Shown: positions 43,045 to 62,533, counted from the first letter of the stretch. The stretch is 64,000 nt of DNA from Elusimicrobia bacterium GWF2_62_30 (GCA_001799995.1 MGUK01000070.1:9056-73055); one strand, 5' to 3'. Made by a program: numbers and translations. Notes: a model not told the origin generated them from the letters alone.

Positions 43045-43182
43045 ATGGCACGCTTTTATTATACCATTATAGCAGGAGACGGGAATTTAAGGGAAAACCC
43101 GCCCGGAACCGGGAAAAGCGCCCTCTGCCGGGCCCCGGCAGACTACCCGCGGACACCGTTCACCGTTGAGCAAACCACCCAG

Positions 43183-46987: not shown

Positions 46988-47034
46988 CGGAAGGGCCGGC
47001 GCAAGAACCACGCCGGAGGCGGTCTGAAAAAATC

Positions 47035-48234
47035 GTGAAAACATTTTACCTGTCCCTGCTCTGGGACTGCAACGAGAACTGCGTGTTCTGCCTTAAGAAG
47101 GCCCCCCCCGAGCAGGAGAACTCCGTCCCCCCGCTGCTGGAATGCCTGGCGGCCCTGAAGCGCCAGCGCGCCAGGGGGTTCGCCTCGGTCTCCCTCGACG
47201 GCGGCGAGCCTACGCTCAGGCGTGACCTGCCGCGCATCCTGAAGTACGCCCTTTTGCTCGGCTACAAAAAAATAATGGTCATGACCAACGGCGCCGCGCT
47301 GAGCGCGGAGAACGTCCGGCGGCTGGCCGCGCCGGAAGGCGGCCGCCCCTCGCGAATTTCTTTCTGCGTCTCGCTCCACTCCCATAAACGGGCCGTCTCC
47401 GAAAAGCTGACGCGCTCCCGCGGGACCTTCCGGCGGACCGTGGACGGAATAAAGAACCTGCTGGCCGCCGGCTTCGACGTCTCGGTCTATCACGTCATAA
47501 CGCGCCAGAACTACCGCGCTCTCCCGGGCTTCGCAGATTTCGCCGCGCGGGAATTAAAGGGCGTTTCAAAGGTGGTCTTTTCGCACATTTACCCCGTGCA
47601 GCACAACCTGGCCGCCATGCGCGGCGTCTACCCCAGATTTTCAAGCGCCCTGCCTTTCCTGGCCGGGGCCATAAGCCGGCTTGAGCGCGCGGGGGTAACG
47701 CCCATGCTGGGCAATTCCGGCATGATGCCGGTCTGCCTGCTGCGGGGACAGGAAAGTTTTTTCACGCAGGCCTATCTCAAGCATGACGGGGACGCCGTCA
47801 CCTTCGACAGGAACAAGTGGGATACGCGCGACAGCCGGAAGCTGGAGCTGCTCCCCTTTTTCCGGGACGATTTCAACGAGCGCAACCGGGTCAAGGCCGC
47901 GGCCTGCGGGAAGTGCGCCCTCAGGGACGTCTGCAGCGGGATCTGGCGTTTTTACGAGGAGCTCTACGGCGCCGGAGAGCTCAAGCCCTACAAAAAAGAC
48001 GCTTTCAGCGGCATCCCGGCGGACGGCCCCCGGGCCGTGATACGGGCGGCCGGGAGCCGCGCGGCCGGCCTGCAGCCCCTCCTGGTGCGGTTGCTCGACG
48101 CGAGGCTTAAGGGGCACGGCTCGGCGCTGGTCCCGGGCCTGCACGGCAAAAGCCGGAAGACCGCGGCGGCTGAATTCGCGCGGGGCATCGGGATGAAATT
48201 ATATTTCGGAAGAACTCAGGGCCGCGGGCAATAG
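47035..48234 (+). CDS. Radical SAM enzyme, HxsC-like family, with a C-terminal extension
   Basis: CNENCVFC, LDGGEPT, CGKCALRDVCSGIWRFYEELYGAGELKP. There is no in-frame ATG after the upstream stop, so a GTG at 47035 is inferred as the start. About 80 extra C-terminal residues. Confidence 0.7.
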   Translation: MKTFYLSLLWDCNENCVFCLKKAPPEQENSVPPLLECLAALKRQRARGFASVSLDGGEPTLRRDLPRILKYALLLGYKKIMVMTNGAALSAENVRRLAAPEGGRPSRISFCVSLHSHKRAVSEKLTRSRGTFRRTVDGIKNLLAAGFDVSVYHVITRQNYRALPGFADFAARELKGVSKVVFSHIYPVQHNLAAMRGVYPRFSSALPFLAGAISRLERAGVTPMLGNSGMMPVCLLRGQESFFTQAYLKHDGDAVTFDRNKWDTRDSRKLELLPFFRDDFNERNRVKAAACGKCALRDVCSGIWRFYEELYGAGELKPYKKDAFSGIPADGPRAVIRAAGSRAAGLQPLLVRLLDARLKGHGSALVPGLHGKSRKTAAAEFARGIGMKLYFGRTQGRGQ

Positions 48235-49025
48235 ACCAGCCTGTCCACGCCCAGCTTTGCCAGTTCGCTTTCCTTCGCGTAGAACTTCTCCGGGAAATAC
48301 AGGAAAGTGGTATTCCCCTTCACTATCAGCCTCTCCCTCACCCTCGGGTGCGAAAGCTCCAGGGCGCAGGCGCCGCATTCCCTGCCGCAGGAGTCAGGGT
48401 CCGGCTCTTTGCCTGCGGCCGGCGCGGCAAGCCCCGGCAGGCAGGCCCTGGTGCTGGTCAGGTTCAGGTAAGGGTAGTACAGGGAAATAGCGAACTTGCC
48501 GCCGGCGCGGCCCAGGTCCGCCCGGAAGCGCCGCCCCGGTGAAGAAAGCTCGAAGCGGCTCACCCCGGCCTTGAGGAAGAAATCGAGAGCGGCGCGGCTC
48601 GTCAGCAGCAGCCTGCCGGCGCTGAACATGAAAAGATTATCGTAGAGCAGCCTGCCCAGGTTCAGCTTCAGGGGCAGCTTCAGCTGCGCCGCCAGCTCCA
48701 GCGCCCCGAAATCGTTCACGGTCAACTCAAGCGTTCCCTTTTGCCGGCCCGGCCGGGAGAGGCGCGAGAGGGCCTTCAGTACGGCCTTCAGCTTGGGCAG
48801 CCCCGCCGGGCCGGACATGGGCGTAAGGAAGGTGACCTTCTTCCCCCTTGAAAGGAAGAACGCGGCCTGGGCGCGGGCGGTTTCCGGGGAAGGCAGCAGG
48901 TTCGCGCAGAATTCGGCCCCCAGGTAAACCCTGTCGAACCTTGCGAGGACGGCGCGGAGCTTTTCCGGGGAGGCGGCCGTCGCGGCGGCCGCGGCTTCCA
49001 GCCGCACGGCTTTTTCAAGCTTCAT
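48216..49025 (-). CDS. Divergent U32-like partner subunit (UbiV-like position)
   Basis: FDRVYLGAEFCANLL, LTVNDFGAL, TSTRACLPG...DSCGRECGACAL. Collinear with 40359-41174. Its ATG overlaps the upstream stop (ATGA). Confidence 0.5.
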   Translation of the reverse strand: MKLEKAVRLEAAAAATAASPEKLRAVLARFDRVYLGAEFCANLLPSPETARAQAAFFLSRGKKVTFLTPMSGPAGLPKLKAVLKALSRLSRPGRQKGTLELTVNDFGALELAAQLKLPLKLNLGRLLYDNLFMFSAGRLLLTSRAALDFFLKAGVSRFELSSPGRRFRADLGRAGGKFAISLYYPYLNLTSTRACLPGLAAPAAGKEPDPDSCGRECGACALELSHPRVRERLIVKGNTTFLYFPEKFYAKESELAKLGVDRLVYCPRP

Positions 49026-49975
49026 AGGGAAAGCCTCGCCGGGTCCCAGGCGCGCATTCTAGAGACGAACGCCGCGCGGGCCTTTTCCGGGCCCAGTTCC
49101 CCCTTCAGTTCTTCCGCCAGCAGGATCATCTGCCGCATGGCCGCGACCTTGCGGACCTTGAGCGGGGAGGGGTCGGAGCGCGTCCCGTACTTGAGGAAAC
49201 CGGCCCCGGCCGCGAAGGCGTCGAAGAACGCCCCGGCCCCGGACAACCGCAGCGGCCCGCCCGAGTTCACGCGCACGGCCACGCGGGCGGTAATGGCGGA
49301 CAGCTCCCGCTTCCCGGCGGGATCGGCGTCGAGCGTTTTTACGCTGACCTCTCCCCCGCAGCCGCCTATGCGGCACAGCTCGCCCGCCTGGCTCATATCG
49401 TTGAAGGTGTGGAAGACGGGGCGGTGCAGCTTGCAGCGCCCGTTGACGTAGCCGCAGCCGAAGAACCTGTAGTCGAAGAGCTCGGTCTCGGCCCCGGCCC
49501 TGCGGCAGGCGCGGACCATCAGCGCGGTCTCCGGGCCGGTAAGCTGGACGGGGAAGATCACGCGGGAGGCCCCGAGGCGCATGAAGAAGGCCGCGGCGGC
49601 CGGGTTGAAGCAGGGCTGGACGGAACTCAGGTGGATGGCGGCTTTGAACGGGCCCGCCTTGCGCGCGAGCGCGAAGAAGGCCGGGCTCGAGACGATGAAG
49701 GAGTCCAGACCCGCGCGGTCCAGCTTCAGGAGTTCCTCCCCGAAACGCCTCCAGCCGGGAGCGTCGAAATCCAGGTAGAGGGAATTTACGGCGAGCGAGA
49801 GCTTAACGCCCAGCTCGTGCGCCCTCTTCACGGCGGGAAGCAGCCGGCGCGTCCCGAGCCTGGCGGCCAGCCCGTAGCTGGGAAAGGCGGGCACGGCGCA
49901 ATACAGCTCGCCGGCCCCGGCCGCCACGAGCGGGGCCATTTCCGCGGTATCGGTAAAACAGGAAACGACCTTCAT
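49022..49975 (-). CDS. Peptidase U32 family protein (UbiU-like)
   Basis: 317 aa, the same length as and collinear with 41171-42124. AAGAGELYCAV, GVKLSLAVNS, IHLSSVQPCFN, ELFDYRFFGCGYVNGRCKLH. Confidence 0.7.
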   Translation of the reverse strand: MKVVSCFTDTAEMAPLVAAGAGELYCAVPAFPSYGLAARLGTRRLLPAVKRAHELGVKLSLAVNSLYLDFDAPGWRRFGEELLKLDRAGLDSFIVSSPAFFALARKAGPFKAAIHLSSVQPCFNPAAAAFFMRLGASRVIFPVQLTGPETALMVRACRRAGAETELFDYRFFGCGYVNGRCKLHRPVFHTFNDMSQAGELCRIGGCGGEVSVKTLDADPAGKRELSAITARVAVRVNSGGPLRLSGAGAFFDAFAAGAGFLKYGTRSDPSPLKVRKVAAMRQMILLAEELKGELGPEKARAAFVSRMRAWDPARLSL

Positions 49976-50916
49976 CAGAAATTCTCCGGCTTTACCGAGC
50001 CCGGGGCGACAGCGGAAGCCTTCAGCTCCCCGCTGCCGTGCACGGCCAGATAATCCGGCCTGGCCCCGCAGCAGGCGGGCTCGAGGCGGCAGCGGCGGCA
50101 GGCGGGGACGGCGGCCTTGGGCGCCGCGTTAGGCGGCAGCACCGGGTCGCCCCGGCGCCAGCGGTGCAGCTCGAAGGCGAAGCCCTTGAACCTGCCAAGC
50201 ACGCAGAGCGGCGTGTTCTGTATGACCGCTTTTATCCCGCTTAGTTTCAGGTAGGCCAGCGCCGTCCGTATGTACGGCACCGCCTGCGTGTAGCTGGGCA
50301 GCAGCGGCTCGGGGCTGACCGCCGCGCGGCCGACATTGCGCATGAAGATGAAATTGACGAAGCCTATATCGGGATGATGCCGGGCCACCCAGCCCGCGAA
50401 AGCGGGCAGCCGGCGGTAATTATGCCGGAAGATTATGTGAAAAAGCCGCGTTTTCCCGGCGGCGCCCAGTTTTTCCAGGTTCTCCAGGCCTTTCAGGGCC
50501 GCCTGGAATTTCACGCTGCGGGTCGCCAGCCGGTAAGTCCTTTCGTCGCAGGCCGGCAGGTTCAGGATGAAGGAATCCACGCTCCCGGCCAGCCTGCGCG
50601 CCAGCCGCATGTCGGCCAGGGCCACGCCGTTGGTGGAAAGCATGAAGGTTTTAACGCCCCGCGCTTTCAGGAATTTTATCCAGCCCTGCAGGCCGGGGCT
50701 GATGGTAGGCTCCCCGCCCCCCTCCAGGCAGACGGCGCCGGCCCCGGTCCTGCCGAGGGCCGCGCGCACTTCAGCGCGGGTCATGGCGCGCCCCGTGGGC
50801 GGGCACTGGCAATAGACGCAGGCAAGGTTGCAGGAAGCCGCCAGGTGCACGGAAAGCTGCCTGCGGACGACCTTCTCCTCGCGCGGTGTCTTACATCTTC
50901 CTGTATGCATGTTCAT
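49975..50916 (-). CDS. Radical SAM enzyme, HxsC-like paralogue family
   Basis: CNLACVYC, LEGGGEPT, CRRCRLEPACCGARPDYLAVHGSGELK. Close paralogue of 42124-43044, with the same TGATG junction to the U32 gene. Confidence 0.85.
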   Translation of the reverse strand: MNMHTGRCKTPREEKVVRRQLSVHLAASCNLACVYCQCPPTGRAMTRAEVRAALGRTGAGAVCLEGGGEPTISPGLQGWIKFLKARGVKTFMLSTNGVALADMRLARRLAGSVDSFILNLPACDERTYRLATRSVKFQAALKGLENLEKLGAAGKTRLFHIIFRHNYRRLPAFAGWVARHHPDIGFVNFIFMRNVGRAAVSPEPLLPSYTQAVPYIRTALAYLKLSGIKAVIQNTPLCVLGRFKGFAFELHRWRRGDPVLPPNAAPKAAVPACRRCRLEPACCGARPDYLAVHGSGELKASAVAPGSVKPENF

Positions 50917-51010
50917 GGGAACCCGCCGCGGGTGCCGGCCGGGAAGGGCCCGGCGGCCCGGAGCGGGAAATACCGGGAGGCAAGTTCTGTCCGGGAACCT
51001 CCCCGGACGG

Positions 51011-51679
51011 TCAGTAGACTATGACCTGGTAGTTCCCCTTTACGAACGGGGCCAGATCCACGAAACCGACCGGGTCGGGGGAAAGCGGCAGGCCCAGCGC
51101 CTTGAGCTTGGCGTGCATCCCGAGCATGGTCGCCGAGCGGGAACACAGCGTATAAGGGATCTTGGCGGCGGTAAAATCGGTCATCGTCAGCCAGAAATAT
51201 TCCTCGCGCGTGCTGGTGAAAGGGCTGCCGAAAGTAAAGCCGGCCGCCGTCTTGACCAGCCTCCCGGGGAACTTGAACTCCTTCTCGACTATCGGGGCGC
51301 CGGGGGCCTCGCCCGCGGGGCGGGGATTTTCCTGCGGCAGGATATAGGTGGTGGTGTCTCCCAGCAGCAGCGGGACCGGCTTGACCTGGGAGAGCACCGG
51401 ATTGGAAGAAACAACGACCGCGCCGGTCGGGATGTTGCGGTAGGACTCCAGGGTGGCCTTGCCCAGGAAGAAAAGCACCGCTTCCCCCTCGAACAGGGCA
51501 TGGACCTCCACGCCGGCCACCTTCAGCTGCATGATATGCTGCACGGCCATCAGGAAGCCGAACCGGTCGTCCACGCTGGAGCGTACGACGACCAGCGCCT
51601 TTTTCGGGTCCTGCTGCGCGTAAGCCTGCGCCGAGAAAAGCGTAAAGAGCGTAAACACCAAAAGTATTTTCTTCAGCAT
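51011..51679 (-). CDS. Secreted protein, weakly DsrE/DsrF-like (tentative)
   Basis: The ATG at 51679 follows AGGAGGGGGG 16 nt after the hxsA stop. MLKKILLVFTLFTLFSAQAYA is a signal peptide. ALVVVRSS...VEVHALFEGEAVLFF and YTLCSRSATMLGM recall the DsrE-fold layout. The upstream RTARTA extension in the track is the repeat read in another frame. Confidence 0.4.
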   Translation of the reverse strand: MLKKILLVFTLFTLFSAQAYAQQDPKKALVVVRSSVDDRFGFLMAVQHIMQLKVAGVEVHALFEGEAVLFFLGKATLESYRNIPTGAVVVSSNPVLSQVKPVPLLLGDTTTYILPQENPRPAGEAPGAPIVEKEFKFPGRLVKTAAGFTFGSPFTSTREEYFWLTMTDFTAAKIPYTLCSRSATMLGMHAKLKALGLPLSPDPVGFVDLAPFVKGNYQVIVY

Positions 51680-51695
51680 TGTCCCCCCTCCTGTC

Positions 51696-52133
51696 CTAAT
51701 ATGACCCGTGCGAGCCGTGCGAGCCGTGCGAGCCGTGCGACCCATGCGAGCCGTGCGAGCCGTGCGAAGCATGCGAGCCGTGCGAAGAATGAGACCCGTG
51801 CGAGGTGTGCGAGCCGTGCGAGGCGTGGGAGCCGTGCGACCCGTGCGAAGAATGAGACGAGTGCGAGGTGTGCGAGCCGTGCGAGGCATGCGACGAGTGC
51901 GAAGCGTGCGACGAGTGCGAGCCGTGCGAGCCGTGCGAGGAATGCGAGCAGGCGGCTTCGGTGGATTTGACCGAAACCAGCAGCGCGCCGAGCCCCATGC
52001 CCAGGCCGATGGTGGCCCCGGCCATGTTGCCGATCTTCGTCTTGGTTATGCGTCCCTCCTCGCAGGTGAGGAACTTTTGAAGGCTCTTTTTAAGACGGGG
52101 AAGCTCGTCTTTTGGTTTTTTGCGTTCAGGCAT
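51696..52133 (-). CDS. hxsA: His-Xaa-Ser repeat protein (precursor/scaffold of the Hxs system)
   Basis: 145 aa. Basic N-region, hydrophobic GNMAGATIGLGMGLGALLVSV, then 27 uninterrupted S-H-x triplets (SHSSHGSHGSHSSHA...SHGSHGSY) running to the C-terminus. It lies immediately downstream of two rSAM maturase-like genes. Confidence 0.8.
   Translation of the reverse strand: MPERKKPKDELPRLKKSLQKFLTCEEGRITKTKIGNMAGATIGLGMGLGALLVSVKSTEAACSHSSHGSHGSHSSHASHSSHASHGSHTSHSSHSSHGSHGSHASHGSHTSHGSHSSHGSHASHGSHGSHGSHGSHGSHGSHGSY
51699..51947. repeat. Degenerate 9-bp-periodic tandem repeat encoding the H-x-S array
   Basis: The plus strand reads (gtgcgagcc/gtgcgaagc/gtgcgaccc...)n. All alternative frames are open, which creates several spurious track ORFs. 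Confidence 0.9.
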
Positions 52134-52155
52134 ATCGTCCCCTCATCCTTCGTCG

Positions 52156-52174
52156 GCGGGACCGCTTGTCCCGC
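52156..52174 (-). other. GC-rich hairpin in the hxsB-hxsA spacer (7-bp stem, 5-nt loop)
   Basis: Minus-strand RNA GCGGGAC-AAGCG-GTCCCGC, 23 nt upstream of the hxsA ATG. There is no following U-run, so it is not a classical terminator. Confidence 0.4.
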
Positions 52175-52183
52175 TCCGGTAAC

Positions 52184-53680
52184 TCACTTTTTGAACACGT
52201 CCTTATACCAGCCCTCGTTAAGCCAGGAGGCCAGGACCTTCCGGTCCTCCGGGCGCGAAAGCTTTTCGAAAATTATCTTCAGTATGCCCTTGTTCATCAT
52301 GCAGCGCTGGTCGTTGGCCTTCTGCGGGAACAGGCTGCCGGAAAAATAGCTGTTGATGGGGCAGACCCCGCAGAACGGCTTGAAAGCGCAGTCGGAGCAG
52401 CCCGGCAGGCTTTCGAGGCAGGAGGAGACGCACAAGGTCTTGGTGACGGGGCTTTCCAGCACCTGGGTATAGGAGGTGTCGGCCACGTTGCCCAGCCGAA
52501 AGCTCTCGTCCCCCATCACGGAAAGCATGCGGCCCTCGTCGCAGGTGTAGATGTCGCCGTTGTAGTTATAGGCCAACTGCCCTATGGCGGCGCCGCAGAT
52601 CATGCGGCAGTCCATATGCGCGGGATCGGAGCCGGACAGGATCTTGGTAAGCAGGGTCTGCGCCGTCTTCTCGCGGATCTTGACGCCCTTGAGGTTAAGG
52701 GTTATCAGGTACTCCAGCAGTTCCCGGTAGAACGCCAGGTACTCCGCCGCGCCGTAGCCGATGCGCTGCCAGTTGGCCGCGGTAAAGCCGAAAGGGTTCA
52801 GCGGGCGCGCGTAGATCTCGCGCAGGCCCAGGCGCAGGTATTCGTCCACCAGCGCGCGGGCGGAGCCGAGCGCCTGCCTGGTGACGGTGGCGAGGGCCGT
52901 TATCCTGTAGATGTAGCCCTTCTTGAGATAGCGCGGCCGGGCCTTGTTGAACTTCTTGATCCAGGAAACGACCTGCGCGTGGCTGGAGCCGCGGCTGTAG
53001 ACGCGCTGCGCGTCGTGCAGCTTGGCCGGGCCGTCGAGCGAGGTGGCGACGCCGATATTGTTGCGGAAGATGAAATGCAGCTTTTCCTCGTCCAGCGAAG
53101 AGAGGTTGGAGACCAGTTTGAAATCCACGCTCTTTTTGAGCTTGGCGGCCTTGTCCTGGGCGTACTTGACCGAGAAAAGCAGGGTCTCCCAGTTCAGGAA
53201 GGGTTCGCCGCCCTGGAACTCTATGACCAGATTCTTCCCGGCGGAGGCGAAAATGAAGTCCAGCGTCTTGCGGGCCGTCTCCACGTCCATGTCGAAGCGC
53301 TTGTCCTCCTCGCCCTTGGCGGAGGCGTGGCAGTACACGCATTTCTGGTTGCAGCGTATCGTGAGGATCATGATATGCAGCGTAGTGCCGGCGAACACCG
53401 AGGAATGGAGGTTGGCGAACTTCTCCGCGCAGGACGCGAAGCCGGCCGATTCCACGAAGAAGCCGCTCTCGGACAGCTCCGCGTATTTGGGATGGCCGCA
53501 GTCCAGCTTCCCGGAGGAGAAAGCCGTGAATTCGTTCTTGTCGAGCACGGCCCAGCCGCCCCAGTCGTTGGTGACCAGCATGCGGCCGAGGCCCATCGGC
53601 TCGAAATAATAAGCGCCGGTCTCGGGAGCGGGCACCACTTCCGTCACGGCCGCGGCGGGCTTGGTTTTCTTGGTCTTCAT
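52184..53680 (-). CDS. hxsB: Radical SAM/SPASM-like maturase (HxsB-like)
   Basis: CNQKCVYCHAS, FQGGEPF, C-terminal Cys clusters (...CDEG..., CSDCAFKPFCGVCPINS), an anSME/SPASM-type layout. The ATG at 53680 overlaps the upstream stop (ATGA); the track start at 53692 is a GTG. Confidence 0.7.
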   Translation of the reverse strand: MKTKKTKPAAAVTEVVPAPETGAYYFEPMGLGRMLVTNDWGGWAVLDKNEFTAFSSGKLDCGHPKYAELSESGFFVESAGFASCAEKFANLHSSVFAGTTLHIMILTIRCNQKCVYCHASAKGEEDKRFDMDVETARKTLDFIFASAGKNLVIEFQGGEPFLNWETLLFSVKYAQDKAAKLKKSVDFKLVSNLSSLDEEKLHFIFRNNIGVATSLDGPAKLHDAQRVYSRGSSHAQVVSWIKKFNKARPRYLKKGYIYRITALATVTRQALGSARALVDEYLRLGLREIYARPLNPFGFTAANWQRIGYGAAEYLAFYRELLEYLITLNLKGVKIREKTAQTLLTKILSGSDPAHMDCRMICGAAIGQLAYNYNGDIYTCDEGRMLSVMGDESFRLGNVADTSYTQVLESPVTKTLCVSSCLESLPGCSDCAFKPFCGVCPINSYFSGSLFPQKANDQRCMMNKGILKIIFEKLSRPEDRKVLASWLNEGWYKDVFKK

Positions 53681-53916
53681 ATTGAATTGCACAGCGCCAT
53701 GTTCACAAATTCCGCTTCTACGCGCTCGGCCGGCACCCCGCCCTTGGGCGTTATGACCGCCGTGATATAGGCGCCGCTGCCGGAAATGGAAAAGTCCGCC
53801 AGGGCGGAATATTCACGCGCCGCCTCTTTAACGGCGGCTTCCTTGTAGATCTCCCGGTGCAGCTTAATGCTTAGCTTTTTTAAGCTTGTCTTTTTGGGGC
53901 TTTTCTTTGTCGCCAT
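53677..53916 (-). CDS. Small protein resembling the N-terminal two-thirds of HxsD (second HxsD-like module)
   Basis: 79 aa. IKLHREIYKEAAVKEAAREYSALADFSIS...ITAVITPKGGVPAERVEAEFVNMAL parallels LNLDTYSLESVYQAAYSMLDKLYFYF...LMVEIKSKENLPMPALEKLKGEFLNELL of the upstream gene. Its stop is coupled to hxsB (ATGA). Confidence 0.4.
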   Translation of the reverse strand: MATKKSPKKTSLKKLSIKLHREIYKEAAVKEAAREYSALADFSISGSGAYITAVITPKGGVPAERVEAEFVNMALCNSI

Positions 53917-54274
53917 ATTTTTCTTCCCAGGGCAGCGCTATGCCCAGCGGGTCCTCGATGTAATCGGCCTTGTCGGCGGAGGCGCCTATCAGCGCCTGGG
54001 CTATCAGAGCTTCGCGGACCTTCCTGGTGCGCTTGGCCACGGAAACGCGCAGCTCGGAGTTGAGCAGCTCGTTGAGAAATTCTCCCTTCAGCTTTTCAAG
54101 GGCCGGCATGGGGAGGTTTTCCTTGGATTTTATCTCCACCATGAGGGTTTTGGCGTTGCGCTTGTCGAAATAGAAATAGAGCTTGTCCAGCATGGAATAA
54201 GCCGCCTGATAGACGCTTTCCAGGCTATAGGTGTCGAGGTTGAGGTTGAAGACCGATTTATTCATTTTATCCAT
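53864..54274 (-). CDS. hxsD: HxsD-like protein
   Basis: FLNELLNSELRVSVAKRTRKVREALIAQAL fits the LLNDYxLRE-type motif I recall for the HxsD family. The ATG at 54274 (MDKMNK) is preferred over the longer track ORF. Confidence 0.55.
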   Translation of the reverse strand: MDKMNKSVFNLNLDTYSLESVYQAAYSMLDKLYFYFDKRNAKTLMVEIKSKENLPMPALEKLKGEFLNELLNSELRVSVAKRTRKVREALIAQALIGASADKADYIEDPLGIALPWEEKYGDKEKPQKDKLKKAKH

Positions 54275-54440
54275 ACATTTTATACAAAAAAAGCCGCAGC
54301 GGGCGCACCATCTCCTGCTATATGTATACCACATTCTCCCTCGTGTTCGCAAGGAAAAATTGCCGCCCGTTCGCACGGGGCGTTCGCTAATTATATTATA
54401 TACCGGCCGGAGGCCGAAGTCCCGAAGAAATCATGAATGC

Positions 54441-55373
54441 TCAGCGCTTTTTGCCGGCAGCCGGCGCGCGGCCTTTCAGCACAGGGCGGAGCTCCCCGGC
54501 GCCGTACAGGTCCAGGTACTGCGGCCGGATGCCGGCGCATTCCCCCCCCAGCGCGCAGCCGGAGCAGACCGGCGGCTTCACCTTGTCTATCTGGATGTTC
54601 TTCTGGTTGAGCATCATATACCTGTCTATCGAAGCGTGCTCGAACCCCTTCATGAAGCAGATGGGGATATCGTCCACAATGTACTTTATGTCGTTCTTGT
54701 CGCAGACCCGCGCGGCCGCGGCCAGGTGGGGCCCTACCTTTTCAAAGCGGGGCACCAGCGAAAGCCGCTTGGGGACCATGCCGAGGATGCAGACCATGTT
54801 GAAAAGGACGTTGAGCACCCCGGGGAATTTTTCCGCCACGAAGGAGGCGTACTCCTCCATCGTATCGTAGTTGAGGGTGGTGATCACCATCAGGATACAC
54901 ATCGTCTTCTCGCCGCCGAGCTTCACGATGTTCTCCATGCCTTTGAGCCGGCGGAGGTATGACCCCTTGCTCTGCGTTATGCGGTCGGACAGCGCCGGCA
55001 GGTGCGACGGGAAATTGACGTGGAAAGTGGTGACGCCCGCGTCCAGCAGGGACCGGGTGAAAGCCAGGTCGGAAAGCCGGACGCCGTTGGTGCGCAGCAG
55101 CACTTTTTCAAAGCCGCTCTTGCGGGCGAAGCGCACCAGGTCCGGCAGCTTGTCGGACAGCGTGGGCTCCCAGAGGCCTATGCGCAGGGTGTCGGCGCCC
55201 GAAGCCAGCAGCTTCTTTATCTGGTCGGGCGCGGAAGGGATGTTATCGGGGAGATTGCTGCAGAACAGGCACTTCTGGTTGCACCTGGTGACCAGGTCCA
55301 CGATGGGATAGACGCTGTTTATCGTATCGTTCTTTTTCCGGCCCGCCGCGCCGCCGCCTTGTTTTTTCATCAT
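54441..55373 (-). CDS. hxsC: Radical SAM maturase (HxsC-like)
   Basis: The ATG at 55373 lies just after the upstream stop. CNQKCLFCSN, C-terminal CSGCALGGECAGIRPQYLDLYGAGELRPV. Its position in the hxs cassette supports the call. Confidence 0.65.
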   Translation of the reverse strand: MMKKQGGGAAGRKKNDTINSVYPIVDLVTRCNQKCLFCSNLPDNIPSAPDQIKKLLASGADTLRIGLWEPTLSDKLPDLVRFARKSGFEKVLLRTNGVRLSDLAFTRSLLDAGVTTFHVNFPSHLPALSDRITQSKGSYLRRLKGMENIVKLGGEKTMCILMVITTLNYDTMEEYASFVAEKFPGVLNVLFNMVCILGMVPKRLSLVPRFEKVGPHLAAAARVCDKNDIKYIVDDIPICFMKGFEHASIDRYMMLNQKNIQIDKVKPPVCSGCALGGECAGIRPQYLDLYGAGELRPVLKGRAPAAGKKR

Positions 55374-55377
55374 AATA

Positions 55378-56388
55378 TCAGCGGTGCCCGGCCGCCCGCT
55401 CCCCCGGGCCCTTTCGCCGGGCCGGTAATTTTTCAAAATTGAGCACGAAAGGCCTCGCGGCCAGCGTGGAGAACAGCGGTTTCCCGCCCCGGAAAGGCTC
55501 CGCCCTGCCGCCGGACACCCGGATCTCGTCCGAGAGCGCCAGCCGCCTGTAGAGCCCGTCGTCGAGCAGGGAGCGCGGCAGGGAGACGGCCGGGCCGGCG
55601 ATGCGCCCGTCCTTAAGGCGCCCGTCCACGAAGGCGTAGCGGTACTTCCCCCAGAAAAGGACGGGCTTGGCCAGCGCGGCTTCCAGCGCGGCCGCGTATT
55701 CCGGCGCGTAATGTTTTATGAAGGCGAAGATGTCCGCGGCCTTGCGGAGGCTTCTGGGGCAGTCATAGGAACAGGGATGCCAGCCTATGACGTGCAGCGT
55801 CTGGAAGACGTACCCGCTGTTGTACTTTTCCACCTTCGCGTAGCTGCGCTGGTCCGCGGCGTTGTCGTTATGGATGCGGGAGGAATAATTGTAGACGTTG
55901 TTCATCCTGAAATCCAGCTTCTCTTTTCCCGCCGTGCCCTTGTACGCCATCTCCACCAGGTCCTGCCCCTGCCCCATCGTGTCGAGCCACTGCCGGTACA
56001 TGCGGATGCAGCATTCCGGGTAGCCCAGCATCACGGACCAGCGCTCGTTGTTCTTCGGGTCCTTCCAGGTCAGCGCCGCCTTCGTCAGCAGTTTCTCGTC
56101 GCGGCCGATGAAGAAGATCTCTTTGCTGCCCTCCATGTGAAAGCAGCTCCTGCCGGCGAACTTTTCGGCCGGGATGCATTTAAGCTTCAGCCTGGCGCAA
56201 AGGTCCTGCAGGAGGGGCAGCCTTTCGTGCGAACAGGAGGTATAGGTGACGGGCTTGGCGCCGGTAAGCACGCCGGCCAGGTCGGAAAAGGTCGGGTCCG
56301 TGATGTTGACGCGGGAGACCCCGGGCGCCAGCGGCCTGGCCAGCCTGATGGTCCCTCCCTCGTAATTGCGGCTTAACAGCGCTTCCAT
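55378..56388 (-). CDS. Cys-motif protein (DUF483-like, tentative), unknown function
   Basis: MLGYPECCIRMY and IGWHPCSYDCPRS form a GYP.CC ... H.PCS..C pair that I associate with DUF483-type proteins. No other motif recognised. Confidence 0.4.
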   Translation of the reverse strand: MEALLSRNYEGGTIRLARPLAPGVSRVNITDPTFSDLAGVLTGAKPVTYTSCSHERLPLLQDLCARLKLKCIPAEKFAGRSCFHMEGSKEIFFIGRDEKLLTKAALTWKDPKNNERWSVMLGYPECCIRMYRQWLDTMGQGQDLVEMAYKGTAGKEKLDFRMNNVYNYSSRIHNDNAADQRSYAKVEKYNSGYVFQTLHVIGWHPCSYDCPRSLRKAADIFAFIKHYAPEYAAALEAALAKPVLFWGKYRYAFVDGRLKDGRIAGPAVSLPRSLLDDGLYRRLALSDEIRVSGGRAEPFRGGKPLFSTLAARPFVLNFEKLPARRKGPGERAAGHR

Positions 56389-56398
56389 TGACGGCTCC

Positions 56399-57364
56399 TC
56401 AGAAAAATATCAGGTACAGGAACGAACCTTTTATCAGCATCGTGGACGCCAGCCCGATCGTGATCCAGGCGGCGAAAGGCATGTCGTCCGCGCCTATCCC
56501 GTACTTGGCGGCCAGCGAAGGCAGTATCCCCACCAGCAGGTAAAGCACGAAGAACGTGGCCATCATGATGAGGGCCATGTGCAGGAACTGCAGGCGCACC
56601 GGCGACAGGAGCAGGGCCGAGAAGAACAGCCCGGCGAACACGCGGAACCGCCGCCTGAACGGCTCCTCCTCCAGCTTCCGCCCGGCGTCCCCCCCCCAGA
56701 AAAGCAGCGCTATCATGGCCGCCAGGGTCAGCATGGTGGAGACCCGCTTGTCGAAATGGAAGAACCAGGTAACGCACATCAGCACGCTGAAGAGCACCCC
56801 GGCGAGCAGCATCAGCCCGGCGGCGTTCTTCAGCTTTTCCAGCGAGGCCCCGGCCATTTCCCGCCAGAGGTTCTTTTCCGTGCTGGCCCGCGCGAACCGG
56901 ACCAGCTTCCAGGCGGTGTCCGCCCAGACGAAGACCGCGGCCACGGTGATGGTGTTGAGAAAAAGGTTGAAGGCGGGGAACAGCGGGATGTAATGGCGGA
57001 AATAATATTTCAGCGGGAGCAGGAGCACCAGCACGAAAAAGAGCTTGGCGTCGCCGGCCGACCACAGGTTGAAATGGAACAGCAGGAAACCGCAGACCAG
57101 CGCGAAGAGCGAGTTTACCGCGGTGAGCAGCAGCAGGCGCGGCCAGCTGCCCGCGAAAAGAGTGTTGAGCAGGAGCTCCTCGGTAACATAGGGGGCGTAC
57201 AGCCTGTAAAGAGAAACTCCGCCGTAAGCCAGCACCGCCCAGGCGAGCCCCGCGAGTATCCAGAAATTGCGGATCTTCCCCTCCCGGGAATCGGAGAAGG
57301 AGGTGGCCGCGCAGATAACGGCGAGGGCCGGGACCAGGGCCAGGTCGAGGATGTCGGGCTTCAT
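56399..57364 (-). CDS. A24-family (prepilin/preflagellin-type) aspartic membrane peptidase with extra C-terminal TM segments
   Basis: First Asp motif SDSREGKIRN (D-x5-I-x-N) in TM1-2, second Asp motif WSAGDAKLFFVL (G.GD.KL). About 190 additional polytopic residues follow. Confidence 0.6.
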   Translation of the reverse strand: MKPDILDLALVPALAVICAATSFSDSREGKIRNFWILAGLAWAVLAYGGVSLYRLYAPYVTEELLLNTLFAGSWPRLLLLTAVNSLFALVCGFLLFHFNLWSAGDAKLFFVLVLLLPLKYYFRHYIPLFPAFNLFLNTITVAAVFVWADTAWKLVRFARASTEKNLWREMAGASLEKLKNAAGLMLLAGVLFSVLMCVTWFFHFDKRVSTMLTLAAMIALLFWGGDAGRKLEEEPFRRRFRVFAGLFFSALLLSPVRLQFLHMALIMMATFFVLYLLVGILPSLAAKYGIGADDMPFAAWITIGLASTMLIKGSFLYLIFF

Positions 57365-57383
57365 AACAGGGGAGCGGGGAATT

Positions 57384-58334
57384 TCATGCCGCCTTCTTCC
57401 CGGCCGGCGGCTTTTTCCGGGGCGCCTTGATCTCCGAGAGGCCGAACACGGCGGCGTAAGTTTTCCAGATGCCGCCGCAGTCCTCCAGCTTGGGACAGGC
57501 CGCGCAGGCCTTCGGGCGGAGCTTGGAGCCCTGGGAGTTCAGGAAAACGTTCTCCTCCACCTGGCCGGGGGAGTTGACCTTCAGCTTCAGCCTGCCGCCG
57601 GGGATGAGGTCGTGCAGCTCCGCGTCGAAAAGGCAGTAGGGCATATTGAAAACTATGTGGCGGTCGATGAGGACCCCGCGCGCCAGGGCCAGGGCCTCTG
57701 TCACGTAAGGCAGCGCCTCCGACATCTTCACGCCCAGCCAGTCCGCGTTGGCGCGCATGGAGCCTTCGTAGATGGGGTAGATGAAACCGATGCCGCTGAC
57801 CCCTTCGCGGAGGGCGAAAGTTTCCACGTACTGCGGCAGGAAGCGGTAGTTCGGCCGCGTTATCACTATATCCACGCTGGTCCGCGCCCCCAGGGCCCGG
57901 ACATTGCGCAGCCCGCCCAGCGCGCGCGCGAAAGAGCCCTCTACCATGGTCAGGCGGTCGTGGATGGCGGCGTTGTGGCCGTGGATGGAGAACTTGAAGT
58001 AATCGGCGCCGGCCTCGACGAGACGGCGGGCGAAGTCCTTGTAGGAAAGCATGATGCCGTTGGTCTGCACGCGGATGGTGTCGAAGCCGGATTTGCGGGC
58101 GAAGGAGGTGAGCGAGAGTATATCCGGCCTTATCGTAGGCTCCCCGCCGCCGAAGCCGATGGTGCGGAAGCCTTCGCGGCGCGCCTGGGCGATATCCGCC
58201 AGCGCCTCGGCCGTATTTTTAGGCGGGCGCAGTTTCTTGTCCGTGATCGAGCAGAAGGCGCAATTGCAGTTGCAGGCGTAGCCGAGCGTCAGCTCGTAAA
58301 CCCGTTTGGAATTCTCCTTCCTGTCGAAGCTCAT
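57384..58334 (-). CDS. Radical SAM enzyme, HxsC-like paralogue family
   Basis: CNCNCAFC, FGGGEPT, C-terminal CAACPKLEDCGGIWKTYAAVFGLSEIK. Confidence 0.85.
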   Translation of the reverse strand: MSFDRKENSKRVYELTLGYACNCNCAFCSITDKKLRPPKNTAEALADIAQARREGFRTIGFGGGEPTIRPDILSLTSFARKSGFDTIRVQTNGIMLSYKDFARRLVEAGADYFKFSIHGHNAAIHDRLTMVEGSFARALGGLRNVRALGARTSVDIVITRPNYRFLPQYVETFALREGVSGIGFIYPIYEGSMRANADWLGVKMSEALPYVTEALALARGVLIDRHIVFNMPYCLFDAELHDLIPGGRLKLKVNSPGQVEENVFLNSQGSKLRPKACAACPKLEDCGGIWKTYAAVFGLSEIKAPRKKPPAGKKAA

Positions 58335-58343
58335 AGGCGGAGG

Positions 58344-58907
58344 TCAGTCGAGACGCTGGGCCTCCACCCGCCAGCTGGCGGTGGAGATATCCAGCCCGAT
58401 GGTAAAATCCTCGCCGGTGGTCAGGCAGACGTTCACCACCCCGAAAGCCCCCTCGTCCGCGGGGATCATGTCCTTGTTTATGCCCTGCAGGTATTTGGGG
58501 TCAGAAGGCGAGCGCACCTCCATCTTGAACGCGGTCTTTTCCTTTTTTTCCGTGATAGCGACTTTCCAGAGGACCCGCCAGTGCGCGCCTTCCGTCACTT
58601 TCAGTTTAAAGGTCTCCCTGACGGCCGACTCGCCCTTATAGACCGCGATGCTTTTAAAGCGTGAATACGGCTTGTCCGGCTCCAGCTCGTCGGCCATGTC
58701 GTTCATCGCCTTCTGCTTGAAACTCTTGCCGGTAGGCAAGGAACCCCCGCCCTGGTCGGGGATGCCCAGCGGCCAGTCATAAGGGGACATGCCGTTAAAA
58801 GTGGTCGTAGAAGTATCGGCATAAGGAAAACCTTTCCAGCCCTGGGCGTGCGCCGCGCAGGCGAACAGCAGGAGCGACGCCGCGATCAACCAGTTTTTTT
58901 TGTCCAT
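58344..58907 (-). CDS. Secreted protein, unknown function
   Basis: MDKKNWLIAASLLLFACAAHAQG signal peptide, beta-rich remainder, no motif recognised. Confidence 0.5.
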   Translation of the reverse strand: MDKKNWLIAASLLLFACAAHAQGWKGFPYADTSTTTFNGMSPYDWPLGIPDQGGGSLPTGKSFKQKAMNDMADELEPDKPYSRFKSIAVYKGESAVRETFKLKVTEGAHWRVLWKVAITEKKEKTAFKMEVRSPSDPKYLQGINKDMIPADEGAFGVVNVCLTTGEDFTIGLDISTASWRVEAQRLD

Positions 58908-59446
58908 ATGTATACCCCTCCGCGGTATTCCTTCGCGACCAGGCCCATGCGGATAAGCCGCTCGGCCGCCCTGAAAACCTCGCCCTCGTTGGAGCAGGAA
59001 GCGCAGATCTTTATCCCTTTGGCCAGCTTGAGCACCTGCGCGGTGGTGATCTTATTCTTCCGCGCCAGGACCGCCAGCATGCATTTCTCCAGGTCCGTCA
59101 GCGGGCGCGCCGGGGGTTTGAACGCCGCGGCGACGCCCGAATGCGCGGCCGGTATCCCGGCGCAGGCCCCCTGCAGGAAACAGCGCTCTTTCGCCGGGCA
59201 GGGCAGGGAGCGGCGGGAGGCCGACAAGTAGCGGGTATAGCCCGGGAGCAGGCAGGGGGTCACCCCTTCTATACTGAGGCCGGCCCCCTTTTCGATGCAG
59301 AGGTCCGCCGCCTCGCGCAGCAGGTCCAGCCCGCCCGGGGCGGCAAGCAGGGCGCTGTCCGGCACAAGCACGAACTTTTTATCCCCTGAACGCTTCAGGG
59401 CCCTCAGGGCCGCGGGCGCGCCGGCAAGCTTGAATTCCAGTTTCAT
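58886..59446 (-). CDS. Two-domain protein: rSAM-C-terminal-like Cys-rich module + winged-helix domain
   Basis: The ATG at 59446 overlaps the upstream stop (ATGA). GVTPCLLPGY...CPAKERCFLQGACAGIP mimics the C-terminal domain of the HxsC-like rSAMs but lacks the CxxxCxxC core. C-terminus LTDLEKCMLAVLARKNKITTAQVLKLA...ERLIRMGLVAKEYRGGVYIW is wHTH-like. Confidence 0.5.
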   Translation of the reverse strand: MKLEFKLAGAPAALRALKRSGDKKFVLVPDSALLAAPGGLDLLREAADLCIEKGAGLSIEGVTPCLLPGYTRYLSASRRSLPCPAKERCFLQGACAGIPAAHSGVAAAFKPPARPLTDLEKCMLAVLARKNKITTAQVLKLAKGIKICASCSNEGEVFRAAERLIRMGLVAKEYRGGVYIWTKKTG

Positions 59447-60696: not shown

Positions 60697-60700
60697 ATGG

Positions 60701-61573
60701 TCAGCCCGCCTTTCCCGGCAGCTTGGTTACAGGGCGGATGAACTCCGCCCCCTTGAGCATAGCCACATGTTCCTTGCGCGGGCCGAAGCAGTTCGCCTTG
60801 AGCAGGCAGGGGCGGCAGCCCGGCAGGCGCTTCTTCTCCAGCTTTGAAAGCGAAGTGTCCCAGCCGGCGGCGCACTTGATGAAATCGATGTGCCGGCCGT
60901 AGAAGGGGCCGAGGAAACAGGGCGGGATATGGTCTACCACGGTCTCTATACCGGCCCTGGCGCAAAGCCCCAGTGCTTTGACCAGGTGCGGTGAGACTTT
61001 CGCGTAGGCGGGCAGCAGCCAGGAGTTCTCCTGCGCGGCCCCCATCCCCTTGAGGTAGCTGAACTGTATGTATTTCACGCCGGGGAAATTTTTGGCCGCG
61101 TAGGTTATGAAGGCGGGCAGGCTGCGGTAATTCAGGGAGGAGATGATATGCGTAAGGCGCACCCGCCCCCCGGCCCTGAGCAGGTTCTTCACGCCGGCGG
61201 CGCGCAGCTTCAGCGTGCCCTTGGTGCCGGTGATGCGGTCGTTGCCGGCGCTCTCGTGGGAAGGGAAGTTGATATTGAAAAGTTCCACGCCCAGCCCGAC
61301 GAGCCAGGCGGCTTTTTCGGGATAGCAGGAGGTGAGGGCGTTGGTCTGGAGCTCTATTTTCAGGCCGAGCTTCTTCGCGAACAGCACTATCCGCTCCAGG
61401 TCCGGAGAGAACGTGGTCTCCCCCCCGGAAAGTATCACGGTGCCGGCGCCGGCGGCGGCCTGTCTTTTTATTTCCTTGAGCACCCAGGGCAGGGACGGGG
61501 TATCCCCCCGGCCCTGGGCCGAGCAGAACAGGCAGCGCTGGTTGCAGGCGGTTATCAGCGGTATCAGGGACAT
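60701..61573 (-). CDS. Radical SAM enzyme, HxsC-like paralogue family
   Basis: CNQRCLFC, LSGGETT, C-terminal CRPCLLKANCFGPRKEHVAMLKGAEFIRPV. Confidence 0.85.
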   Translation of the reverse strand: MSLIPLITACNQRCLFCSAQGRGDTPSLPWVLKEIKRQAAAGAGTVILSGGETTFSPDLERIVLFAKKLGLKIELQTNALTSCYPEKAAWLVGLGVELFNINFPSHESAGNDRITGTKGTLKLRAAGVKNLLRAGGRVRLTHIISSLNYRSLPAFITYAAKNFPGVKYIQFSYLKGMGAAQENSWLLPAYAKVSPHLVKALGLCARAGIETVVDHIPPCFLGPFYGRHIDFIKCAAGWDTSLSKLEKKRLPGCRPCLLKANCFGPRKEHVAMLKGAEFIRPVTKLPGKAG

Positions 61574-62493: not shown

Positions 62494-62533
62494 AAAAGCG
62501 AAGGCCCTAGATAAACGCGTGTCACGCGGATAA

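Follow-up and report, generated by a model that had tools for sequence, protein, structure and literature searches.

A probable non-canonical HxsA4-type His-Xaa-Ser system in a multi-radical-SAM operon beside Group VI nitrogenase-like genes of Elusimicrobia

Background

The His-Xaa-Ser (Hxs) field, whose original definition is said to be that of Haft and Basu in 2011, has one studied system, a compact four-gene antiphage module of Pseudomonadota. Here we analyze an Hxs locus of a very different kind, found in a stretch of 64,000 nucleotides (nt) from Elusimicrobia bacterium GWF2_62_30, a groundwater organism (GCA_001799995.1 MGUK01000070.1:9056-73055); this stretch is called the window below, and its first letter is the origin of all coordinates. 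The canonical HXS module, with the gene order hxsD-B-C-A in Escherichia coli, Klebsiella and Pseudomonas, acts as a broad antiphage system, and 99.7% of such systems lie in Pseudomonadota (Li et al., Nat Commun 2026, PMC13128918). In this module HxsA undergoes processing at its N-terminus, is periplasmic and is modified by +8 Da on an SHRSS motif; the mature protein, made of five basic HxS repeats and a peptidoglycan-binding domain, blocks phage DNA entry, and HxsC binds HxsD (PMC13128918). With these results the statement in a preliminary description of the window, that Hxs has no experimentally established product, has become outdated. The chemical structure of the canonical Hxs modification is still unsolved. 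To our knowledge, canonical HxsA has also resisted reconstitution in vitro.

Two other bodies of work touch the locus. Triceptide enzymes of the radical S-adenosylmethionine (rSAM)/SPASM type form links from His-C2 to C-beta on H-x-x motifs (PMC11499958). As to the genomic neighbourhood, Meheust et al. (2020) described this type of nitrogenase-like locus in Elusimicrobia and proposed a tetrapyrrole as the substrate. Group VI of the nitrogenase-like enzymes has no characterised member according to a 2026 review, and its tetrapyrrole substrate is argued from gene context alone. Neither Meheust et al. (2020) nor the 2026 review of nitrogenase-like enzymes mentions Hxs, a ribosomal precursor or U32 genes.

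The analysis presented here indicates that the window probably encodes a genuine, non-canonical His-Xaa-Ser system of the HxsA4 type, in which an exported peptide would be matured by HxsB together with HxsC-family rSAMs. The evidence that carries this reading is the passing of curated family cut-offs by the precursor and three of its partners, the conservation of the precursor architecture in several phyla, and the recurrence of the small rSAM genes beside HxsB.

Methods

Families were called by NCBIfam profile scores against curated cut-offs, together with Pfam profiles and their gathering (GA) thresholds. We compared 159 related loci in all, 88 of them anchored on HxsB and 71 on nitrogenase-like genes. 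The HxsB-anchored set consists of 8 loci from an exact-protein lookup and 80 from a single scan of species-representative genomes, and the nitrogenase-like-anchored set of 71 was obtained by a metagenome scan using a NifD/K-like alignment. The recurrence of neighbours was assessed by tblastn with 23 window proteins as queries (E<=1e-5) in 84 non-redundant HxsB loci, within a radius of 10 kb. HxsA homologues in the 88 HxsB loci were sought by a regular-expression scan, and neighbour families outside Elusimicrobia were scanned in 106 larger open reading frames (ORFs) from 22 loci.

Results

The precursor and its core partners

The preliminary description had presented positions 51696 to 55373 as a complete Hxs cassette of five genes. 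All five ORFs are present where it had placed them on the minus strand, and they are listed here with the gap that lies between the last two (aa, amino acids).

51696-52133, minus strand: hxsA, 145 aa, a three-part precursor
HxsA residues 1-35: Lys-rich leader with an FLTxEEG(R/K)I motif
HxsA residues 36-55: Gly-rich hydrophobic segment, followed by a signal-peptidase-like TEA↓AC site
HxsA C-terminal part: 27 H-x-S units, ending in GSY
52184-53680, minus strand: hxsB, rSAM/SPASM maturase, 467.4 bits on TIGR03978 (cut-off 370)
53677-53916, minus strand: hxsD-rel, 79 aa, 59.1 bits on NF038315 (cut-off 41)
53864-54265, minus strand: hxsD, about 133 aa, 59.5 bits on TIGR03976 (cut-off 50), with a precomputed PF27806 HxsD match
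54266-54440: intergenic gap of 175 nt, the largest in the operon
54441-55370, minus strand: rSAM 'e', the HxsC-like gene of the preliminary description, 67.6 bits on TIGR03977 (cut-off 267.9) and 71.5 on HxsC4 (cut-off 500)

When these products are scored against the HxsA-D models, the A (as HxsA4), B, D and HxsD_rel assignments pass, while the HxsC assignment fails at 67.6 against 267.9 bits. HxsA reaches 87.7 bits on the HxsA4 model NF038313 (cut-off 55), the window protein aligning by its repeat region; its relatives in other phyla align to HxsA4 over the full length, leader included, at 63-112 bits. On HxsA3 (NF038309) it scores 55.8 bits, just under the cut-off of 65, with an alignment that covers the leader. 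The canonical HxsA model TIGR03979 gives no match at E<=1, and Pfam and NCBIfam profile searches find no peptidoglycan-binding domain and no domain besides the repeat.

The repeat itself consists of 27 uninterrupted H-x-S triplets at residues 64-144, which follow a non-repetitive N-terminus of 62 residues and have G, S, A and T as the x residue 15, 6, 4 and 2 times. At the DNA level it is an imperfect 9-nt array with 76% matches. Since the codons are varied synonymously (Ser TCG/TCT/TCC/TCA, His CAC/CAT), the repeat is kept at the protein level and is not a fresh product of slippage. It might still be asked whether the ORF is a low-complexity artefact of the 9-nt DNA repeat and no gene at all, for long ORFs can also be read from the repeat DNA in its other frames and from the complementary strand (51708-52349, plus strand; 51011-51889, minus strand). 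However, the HxS frame alone has a conserved 62-residue leader, a Shine-Dalgarno (SD)-like sequence upstream of its ATG and a match to a curated hidden Markov model, and the same architecture is found in 57 loci of several phyla, so that we take the artefact as already refuted and its probability as practically nil. On this point the preliminary description judged rightly: curated cut-offs are passed and the repeats are conserved in related genomes, as expected of a genuine Hxs-type locus.

In six related Elusimicrobia loci HxsA is 67-85% identical to the window protein, with invariant key positions in the leader and 13-30 repeats. More widely, an HxsA-like ORF is present in 57 of the 88 HxsB loci, which belong to Elusimicrobia, the candidate phyla radiation (CPR), Myxococcota/Deltaproteobacteria, Omnitrophota and Bdellovibrio. 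The common architecture is a Lys-rich start, the motif (I/L)KK..(I/L)..FL.SEEGK(I/M), a hydrophobic segment, a site with small residues at -3 and -1, and 4-38 HxS units; the cleavage-like site reads TEA↓AC in the window and TSA↓AC in the CPR homologues. By these features the HxsA4 type, i.e. leader plus HxS repeats, is common to Elusimicrobia, CPR, Myxococcota and Omnitrophota. Three Myxococcales homologues (L024, L040, L052) carry, ahead of the hydrophobic segment, a twin-arginine motif K(L)TRRD(F/L)L in place of RITKTKIGN of the window. Because of this motif, we find strong support for the N-terminus of HxsA being an export signal and for modification preceding export, and in the Myxococcales homologues it suggests export of a pre-modified peptide by the twin-arginine translocation (Tat) route.

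Some further variation was seen among the homologues. That of L037 reads LTRRDAL in the unprocessed list. A Paceibacterota homologue (L088:3311-4822, plus strand) has 504 aa and at least 38 HxS units, far longer than the others seen. The C-terminal endings (L002-L089) fall into discrete classes that track lineage, namely GSY, GSW, GQW and (R/S/G)GGWC.

HxsB aligns to TIGR03978 over the full length and contains the Pfam domains Radical_SAM, Fer4_12 and SPASM. Its probable start is the ATG at 53680, which gives a 4-nt overlap with the stop of hxsD-rel; the ORF reaches a GTG at 53692 and the public call starts at 53647, and we set the start at 53680 because the orthologues begin with MKT or MKS. 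All relatives of HxsB at 65-84% identity come from metagenome-assembled genomes of Elusimicrobia, and the next tier, at about 48% or less, from Patescibacteria and others.

HxsD shows the motifs LYFYF and LLNSELRVS, and hxsD-rel lies directly upstream of hxsB in every close relative. BLAST finds no similarity between HxsD and HxsD-rel, so the 'second HxsD-like module' of the preliminary description is a naming convention and paralogy is not demonstrated. The two small genes have a lower G+C content at third codon positions (GC3), 0.71 for hxsD and 0.68 for hxsD-rel, than hxsA (0.79) and hxsB (0.88). A recent horizontal insertion of the cassette was considered and rejected: the G+C content of 52-56 kb is only 0.60, but the GC3 of hxsA and hxsB fits that of the neighbouring genes (0.77-0.89).

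HxsC-family radical SAM paralogues

The window holds 14 rSAM genes. Nine small ones are paralogues of a single family, namely 'a' to 'f', 'g' (47035-48234), 'h' (42124-43044) and one at 37296-38249, and they are 24-33% identical to 'a'. All nine carry CX3CX2C, PxC and a C-terminal CX2CX5C, and by the last of these motifs they would have a second cluster site. Besides 'e', and the two that end the nitrogenase-like operons given below, they are as follows.

62534-63550, minus strand: rSAM 'a', HxsC4-like, 129 bits on NF038332 over the full length (cut-off 500)
61564-62493, minus strand: rSAM 'b', the closest HxsC equivalent in the window, 166 bits on TIGR03977 (cut-off 267.9)
60701-61573, minus strand: rSAM 'c', 65.5 bits on HxsC
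57384-58334, minus strand: rSAM 'd', 110.5 bits on HxsC4 and 99.1 on HxsC, both under cut-off
49975-50916, minus strand: rSAM 'f', 67 bits on HxsC, first gene of an rSAM-U32 triad
42124-43044: rSAM 'h', a paralogue of 'f', heading the second triad

The cassette is therefore not 'complete' in the sense first proposed, as no rSAM of the window reaches the HxsC cut-off and the best one, 'b', lies 6 kb upstream. The HxsC-like gene noted beside hxsD is indeed a member of the nine-paralogue family, though not its most HxsC-like member, and no HxsC-family gene adjoins hxsB in the window. The alignment of 'b' spans positions 31-289 of the 292 in TIGR03977. In CPR and Omnitrophota, too, it is the orthologues of 'b' that match HxsC best, at 179-190 bits, and the orthologues of 'a' elsewhere are the best HxsC4 matches, at 156-164 bits, all of them under cut-off. 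These orthologues of 'a', 45-51% identical to it, adjoin HxsB in more than 10 loci of several phyla. Orthologues of 'd' occur in L002, L008 and L009 (66-79% identity), and 'c' is paired with SufS in seven loci (L023, L039, L041, L046, L095, L099, L110).

The operon and its accessory genes

The cassette is part of a run of 19 co-directional minus-strand genes, from 63990 down to 48216, whose gaps are -53 to +94 nt save one of 175 nt. The order is a TPR protein, 'a', 'b', 'c', a SufS-like protein, a 186-aa protein, a secreted 187-aa protein, 'd', an A24-like protein, a DUF483-like protein, 'e', HxsD, HxsD-rel, HxsB, HxsA, a secreted 222-aa protein, 'f', a U32 protein and its 269-aa partner. The accessory genes are the following.

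63547-63990, minus strand: TPR protein, 43.6 bits on PF14559, first visible gene of the run
59443-60696, minus strand: SufS-like class V aminotransferase of the cysteine desulfurase family, 315 bits on PF00266 and 328 on TIGR01979 (cut-off 475)
58886-59446, minus strand: 186-aa protein of unknown function, no family or PDB match
58344-58907, minus strand: secreted 187-aa protein of unknown function, signal peptide ending AHA↓Q, no family match
56399-57364, minus strand: A24-family (GxGD) aspartyl peptidase-like membrane protein, 18.4 bits on Pfam A24 (GA 26.5)
55378-56388, minus strand: DUF483-like protein, 336 aa, with invariant GYPxCC and PCxYxC, 15.6 bits on PF04467, under GA
51011-51679, minus strand: secreted 222-aa partner of HxsA, with a strong SD sequence, 16 nt past the hxsA stop
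49022-49975, minus strand: U32-family protein (UbiU/TrhP-type), 39.4 bits on PF01136 (cut-off 22.4), with weak UbiU/TrhP matches
48216-49025, minus strand: 269-aa U32 partner, no Pfam or PDB match

Nine co-directional genes upstream of the cassette had been announced, and nine are found (DUF483-like, A24-like, four rSAMs, SufS-like and two unknowns), with gaps of -22 to +40 nt. The largest gap of the operon, of 175 nt, is a possible internal promoter for hxsD-Drel-B-A. A scan for sigma-70-like sites on the minus strand from 47500 to 64000 found none, such a scan being uninformative for this phylum.

The A24-like protein is a candidate leader peptidase of HxsA. As its Pfam score is under GA, its family membership rests on motifs: of the catalytic Asp motifs at D25 (SDSREGKIRN) and D105 (AGDAKL), D25 and AGDAK(L/F) do not vary among 9 sequences drawn from 5 phyla, which include Elusimicrobia, CPR, Omnitrophota and Spirochaetes, and in this respect the name 'A24 peptidase' given at first is borne out. 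The gene comes directly after 'b' in L021, L027 and L088, and is also present in L018, L042, L049 and L075, which makes seven loci, of four phyla, beyond Elusimicrobia. For the 336-aa protein, the name 'DUF483-like' is likewise upheld by distant homologues that carry PF04467. Its AlphaFold2 model (predicted local distance difference test, pLDDT, 88; predicted template modelling score, pTM, 0.89) has no global PDB match, and the local structure matches, 2guk and the Cys-methyltransferase NleE at E 0.02-0.03, may serve as a lead only. In L005 this gene directly follows hxsA.

The secreted 222-aa gene between hxsA and the triad, a conserved one, was absent from the preliminary list. It adjoins HxsA in L002, L006 (twice), L010 (twice), L014 and L093, and has very few detectable relatives. 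The 186-aa protein is kept at 57-68% identity in L002, L008 and L009 and at 28-34% in L023, L071 and L086; the idea that it is a truncated C-terminal domain of an rSAM with a winged helix was dropped, as it has no similarity to the rSAM paralogues. The secreted 187-aa protein is weakly conserved (26-41%) in L002, L008 and L009. In the triad of rSAM and two U32 genes that had been reported downstream, the rSAM and one U32 gene stand, while the second supposed U32 gene (48216-49025) has no Pfam match; its product shows weak similarity only to the U32 protein (E 0.06-0.3), and in related loci the gene comes after the U32 gene without exception. Searching the sequences of solved structures yielded nothing useful for the DUF483-like protein, the secreted partner, the A24-like protein, the 186-aa protein and both U32-type proteins.

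Neighbours that recur in related loci

The D-Drel-B-A unit is constant in close relatives, HxsD alone being undetected in the short L010 contig, and its surroundings vary. L002 has the unit turned round within the same array and has no rSAM 'e'; in L008 hxsD comes straight after the array, and nitrogenase-like genes follow; L009 has the array plus two triads; P0009/L014 has HxsA, the secreted protein and the triad in the order of the window; and L006 has two pairs of HxsA and secreted protein followed by an 'e'-like rSAM. Homologues of the small rSAMs of the window lie near HxsB in most of the 84 loci, at least one in 57 and at least three in 34. The pair of 'a' and 'b' occurs near HxsB-HxsA, at 45-51% and 31-42% identity respectively, in CPR (L021, L088), Omnitrophota (L027) and many other Elusimicrobia. 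Outside Elusimicrobia 38 of the 106 neighbouring ORFs encode rSAM proteins and every other family appears at most 3 times; no dedicated transporter or C39 peptidase was seen as a recurring neighbour among these 106 ORFs of 22 loci. Because they recur beside HxsB across phyla, several HxsC-family rSAMs appear to be integral to this Hxs branch, of which the A24 peptidase would be a recurrent but less frequent part. Of the neighbours in the window, the small rSAMs hence recur widely in other hxs loci and A24 less often, and nitrogenase-like genes are not obligate.

As a side observation, in the Saccharibacteria loci L013:4674-6955 and L016:5312-7591 genes for a T2SSE ATPase and a T2SSF platform protein (Type IV pilus or type II secretion system, T2SS) lie about 3-5 kb upstream of HxsB.

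On a different account of the locus, hxsD-Drel-B-A, whether or not the adjacent rSAM is counted in, would be an HXS-like antiphage module complete in itself that happens to stand in a variable region rich in rSAM genes. The array around it would be unconnected with HxsA and would support the nitrogenase-like enzymes, for instance by helping to make a cofactor. The canonical HXS is a four-gene antiphage system; the unit has its own upstream gap of 175 nt, and in L002 it points the opposite way to the array; L004/L005 and L006/L007 have the unit but no nitrogenase-like gene within 10 kb of it; and 'c'-SufS, 'd' and the DUF483-like gene stand beside nitrogenase-like genes without HxsB in L095, L099 and L110. 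Nevertheless, the 'a'-'b' pair and A24 are found with HxsB-HxsA in loci of CPR and Omnitrophota where nitrogenase-like genes are missing, and in the window only packed co-directional genes separate 'a', 'b' and A24 from hxsD-B-A. The repeat has no basic residue and there is no peptidoglycan-binding domain, and GC3 shows no recent insertion. PADLOC 2023, which contains no Hxs model, matched no defence family and gave only generic rSAM similarity to viperins. Taking these points together, we hold the self-contained module to be unlikely.

Nitrogenase-like operons and the rest of the window

The cassette had been described as embedded in an rSAM and nitrogenase-like array. It does lie within a packed multi-rSAM operon, which abuts two nitrogenase-like operons; the one at 43045-48234 is on the plus strand and convergent with the Hxs operon, not co-directional with it. 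The relevant features are listed below; the Group VI label is a putative one, taken from locus type and gene content and not from phylogenetic placement.

43045-48234, plus strand: Group VI nitrogenase-like (NFL) operon of three genes, convergent with the Hxs operon
43045-45714, plus strand: NifH-NifD-like fusion, with precomputed Pfam Fer4_NifH and Oxidored_nitro
45692-46987, plus strand: NifD/K-like
47035-48234, plus strand: HxsC-family rSAM 'g', last gene of this operon
33493-38249, plus strand: second nitrogenase-like operon of the same gene plan, ending in the HxsC-family rSAM at 37296-38249
about 40359-43044: second rSAM-U32 triad

The NifD/K-like proteins of the two operons are 52% identical. 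A nitrogenase-like gene is near HxsB in 8 of the 84 loci; the window, L002, L008, L093 and L096 have them no more than 10 kb from HxsB, and these five show four different arrangements. In L093 (305-19089) a nitrogenase-like operon and triad stand between an HxsB-HxsA unit and an HxsD-Drel-HxsA unit, the latter including the secreted partner. The triad of 'h', U32 and partner is tightly linked to the nitrogenase-like operon in L091, L093, L099, L100 and L110, and in three loci (L095, L099, L110) 'c'-SufS, 'd' and the DUF483-like gene accompany nitrogenase-like genes where HxsB is missing. Seven nitrogenase-like loci are long (NifD/K-like at >=50% identity); HxsB is found in L093 and L096 only, and L103, L104 and L107 are without any rSAM. 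By this reverse survey, anchored on NifD/K-like, nitrogenase-like genes as an obligate part of Hxs were ruled out. The picture is a modular one, with an Hxs core (D, D-rel, B, A, 'a', 'b', A24), a nitrogenase-like module (NflHD, NflK, rSAM 'g', triad) and a shared set ('c', SufS, 'd', DUF483-like, 186-aa protein). The modules have been joined repeatedly in this Elusimicrobia lineage, in at least four arrangements, and are separable elsewhere.

Between the Hxs unit and the nitrogenase-like operon of L008 there are a class I/II aminotransferase and a TP_methylase (PF00590) at 15034-16938; apart from this TP_methylase, no gene of tetrapyrrole type was seen in the surroundings of these loci. The ORFs scanned in the window showed none for tetrapyrrole biosynthesis.

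On these grounds one might go further and take the whole supercluster as a single HxsA-based pathway to a peptide-derived cofactor or metallophore, in which the nitrogenase-like enzyme reduces the modified peptide and not a tetrapyrrole. The proximity of nitrogenase-like genes to HxsB in five loci and four arrangements, including the sandwiched one of L093, would fit such a pathway, as would the fact that every nitrogenase-like operon and U32 triad of the window has its own HxsC-family rSAM paralogue, the scanned window ORFs being free of tetrapyrrole biosynthesis genes and Group VI lacking a characterised member. Yet HxsB or HxsA lies within 10 kb in only 2 of the 7 long nitrogenase-like loci, 3 of which have no rSAM at all, and conversely a nitrogenase-like gene is close by in only 8 of 84 HxsB loci; CPR and Omnitrophota have flourishing HxsA4 systems that do without such genes, the export signal of HxsA is odd for a cytoplasmic cofactor precursor, and L008 does carry its TP_methylase near the nitrogenase-like operon. 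We regard the single pathway as quite improbable. A related proposal, that the rSAM suite of the Elusimicrobia Group VI loci is organised around the HxS peptide, with the nitrogenase-like reductase, the U32 pairs and the SufS-like protein acting on the peptide or a derived product, is to our mind a long shot as well; if true, it would give the first nitrogenase-like enzyme in a peptide-modification pathway instead of tetrapyrrole chemistry.

The remaining parts of the window are recorded here as side observations. A third U32 gene (28128-29006, plus strand), an overlapping partner ORF (28969-29673) and a B12-binding rSAM form a block at 28128-31197. In all, the window holds two B12-rSAMs, a carbamoyltransferase, a methyltransferase and five GDSL-lipase/TPR paralogues (22116-28004 and 38266-40533). 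In the P0009 locus the Hxs-triad block is followed by a TPR/GDSL gene of 680 aa that resembles these paralogues, and by genes for a carbamoyltransferase, a methyltransferase and a B12-rSAM, an arrangement that mirrors 10964-31197 of the window. On the minus strand at 646-5421 there are a MotB/OmpA-like protein, a 525-aa unknown, a 585-aa protein with FliF C-terminal, FliG middle and FliG C-terminal domains, and a MotA/ExbB-like protein; the 585-aa protein is a FliF-FliG fusion adjoining a stator pair. An IS200-like Y1 transposase is encoded at 9175-9891 (minus strand), and L004/L005 likewise have a Y1 transposase close to their Hxs locus.

Discussion

Gene content and its conservation are the observations of this study, and from them we infer every step of the pathway that follows, for a non-canonical HxsA4-type system in the window. 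Translation of hxsA would give the 145-aa precursor, whose Lys-rich FLTxEEG(R/K)I leader would be recognised in the cytoplasm by HxsB, HxsD and HxsD-rel. The 27 H-x-S units would then be modified by HxsB and the small two-cluster rSAMs 'b', 'a' and 'e', probably also 'c' and 'd'. By analogy with the triceptides, in which His-C2 is joined to the C-beta of residue 3 to form cyclophanes (HAA, HTK, HNR), the likeliest chemistry would be a radical side-chain cross-link inside each unit. The hydrophobic segment and the TEA↓AC site would serve as the export signal, the leader being cut by signal peptidase, by the A24 GxGD peptidase of the operon, or by both. The mature poly(HxS) chain of about 84 residues would then be left in the periplasm, where it may act with the secreted protein encoded directly downstream. 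Our best guess for its role is a polyvalent His-rich peptide of the envelope that binds metal ions or polyanions; an antiphage role akin to that of canonical HxsA, by analogy, and the feeding of the nitrogenase-like and U32 enzymes are two other possible roles.

Several points weigh against parts of this reading. As to the chemistry, the closest characterised families of HxsB are the thioether-forming PapB (134 bits) and the sulfatase maturase (96 bits), and its scores on the cyclophane synthases GrrM/OscB (54 bits), YhhB (56) and AmcB (53) are far under cut-offs, so that by sequence HxsB seems no closer to triceptide synthases than to thioether-forming enzymes or sulfatase maturase. The sole measured Hxs modification, +8 Da on SHRSS, also differs from the -2 Da expected of a simple cross-link, and we know of no cross-link shown for any Hxs protein. 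As to the second maturase, the rSAMs of the window and of the tested relatives all stay under the HxsC and HxsC4 cut-offs, the HxsC role of the window rSAMs is a putative one assigned by best similarity and synteny only, and the small-rSAM matches by tblastn (E<=1e-5) may include some unrelated MoaA-like enzymes (L022). The A24 gene is present in only about 11 HxsB-anchored loci, and signal peptidase alone could explain the removal of the leader. The secreted partner may have a DsrE/DsrF-like fold with a disordered insertion, an assignment without statistical support, since its AlphaFold2 model has a pLDDT of 59.6 and the top full-length Foldseek matches, which are DsrE/DsrF-like, are non-significant (E 0.24-1.5). 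The DNA-binding model put forward for canonical HxsA, finally, is not directly transferable, because the window repeats are without Arg or Lys and there is no peptidoglycan-binding domain. With all this taken into account, we still consider an HxsA4-type system with an exported, rSAM-matured peptide to be probable.

The window and the 57 related loci make up a large, deeply divergent Hxs branch in Elusimicrobia, CPR, Myxococcota and Omnitrophota, which is marked by long arrays of HxS units, export signals of the Sec or Tat type, several rSAMs of the HxsC family and often a dedicated GxGD peptidase, and which supplies many natural variants for solving the Hxs chemistry. For the nitrogenase-like enzymes, a ribosomal precursor that appears repeatedly in Group VI clusters is a concrete and testable alternative substrate, though by the reverse survey the link is not an obligate one.

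Comparison with known systems

With canonical HXS the window shares a His-x-Ser repeat protein whose N-terminal region serves for export or processing, a SPASM rSAM HxsB that passes TIGR03978, an HxsD that passes TIGR03976 and has LYW-like and LLNDYxLRE-like motifs, and a second, smaller two-cluster rSAM, which the canonical system requires. It differs in that its HxsA has 27 repeats instead of 5, none of them basic, and lacks the peptidoglycan-binding domain and any TIGR03979 match; in that no TIGR03977 pass is obtained and the order is C-like, D, D-rel, B, A instead of D-B-C-A; and in that HxsD-rel, the secreted partner, the A24 peptidase and nine HxsC-family paralogues are added, in the phylum Elusimicrobia. 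A reading of the cassette as canonical Hxs is not tenable, then, the precursor being HxsA4 and not TIGR03979, the gene order different and the peptidoglycan-binding domain missing.

Closer to the window are the variant Hxs families of NCBIfam, defined by comparative genomics only: HxsA passes HxsA4 and HxsD-rel passes NF038315, while rSAM 'a' aligns to HxsC4 over the full length but at 129 against 500 bits, and is not HxsC4. The triceptide systems (HaaB, HtkB, YhhB) have in common with it a repeated aromatic-x-x motif with His first, an rSAM/SPASM maturase and a leader-bearing ribosomal precursor, whereas HxsB of the window scores 53-56 bits on cyclophane-synthase models and its product would be long and exported, not a short peptide.

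The clusters of Meheust et al. (2020) are of the same phylum and locus type, with a NifH-NifD-like fusion and a NifD/K-like gene, and in the window such genes stand among 14 rSAM genes in 64 kb. The multi-rSAM, A24-containing architecture and the linkage to Group VI nitrogenase-like genes were not found described in searchable papers. The precursor and two partner families are thus already known from NCBIfam, and what this locus and its relatives newly add is that architecture, together with its recurrent fusion with Group VI loci.

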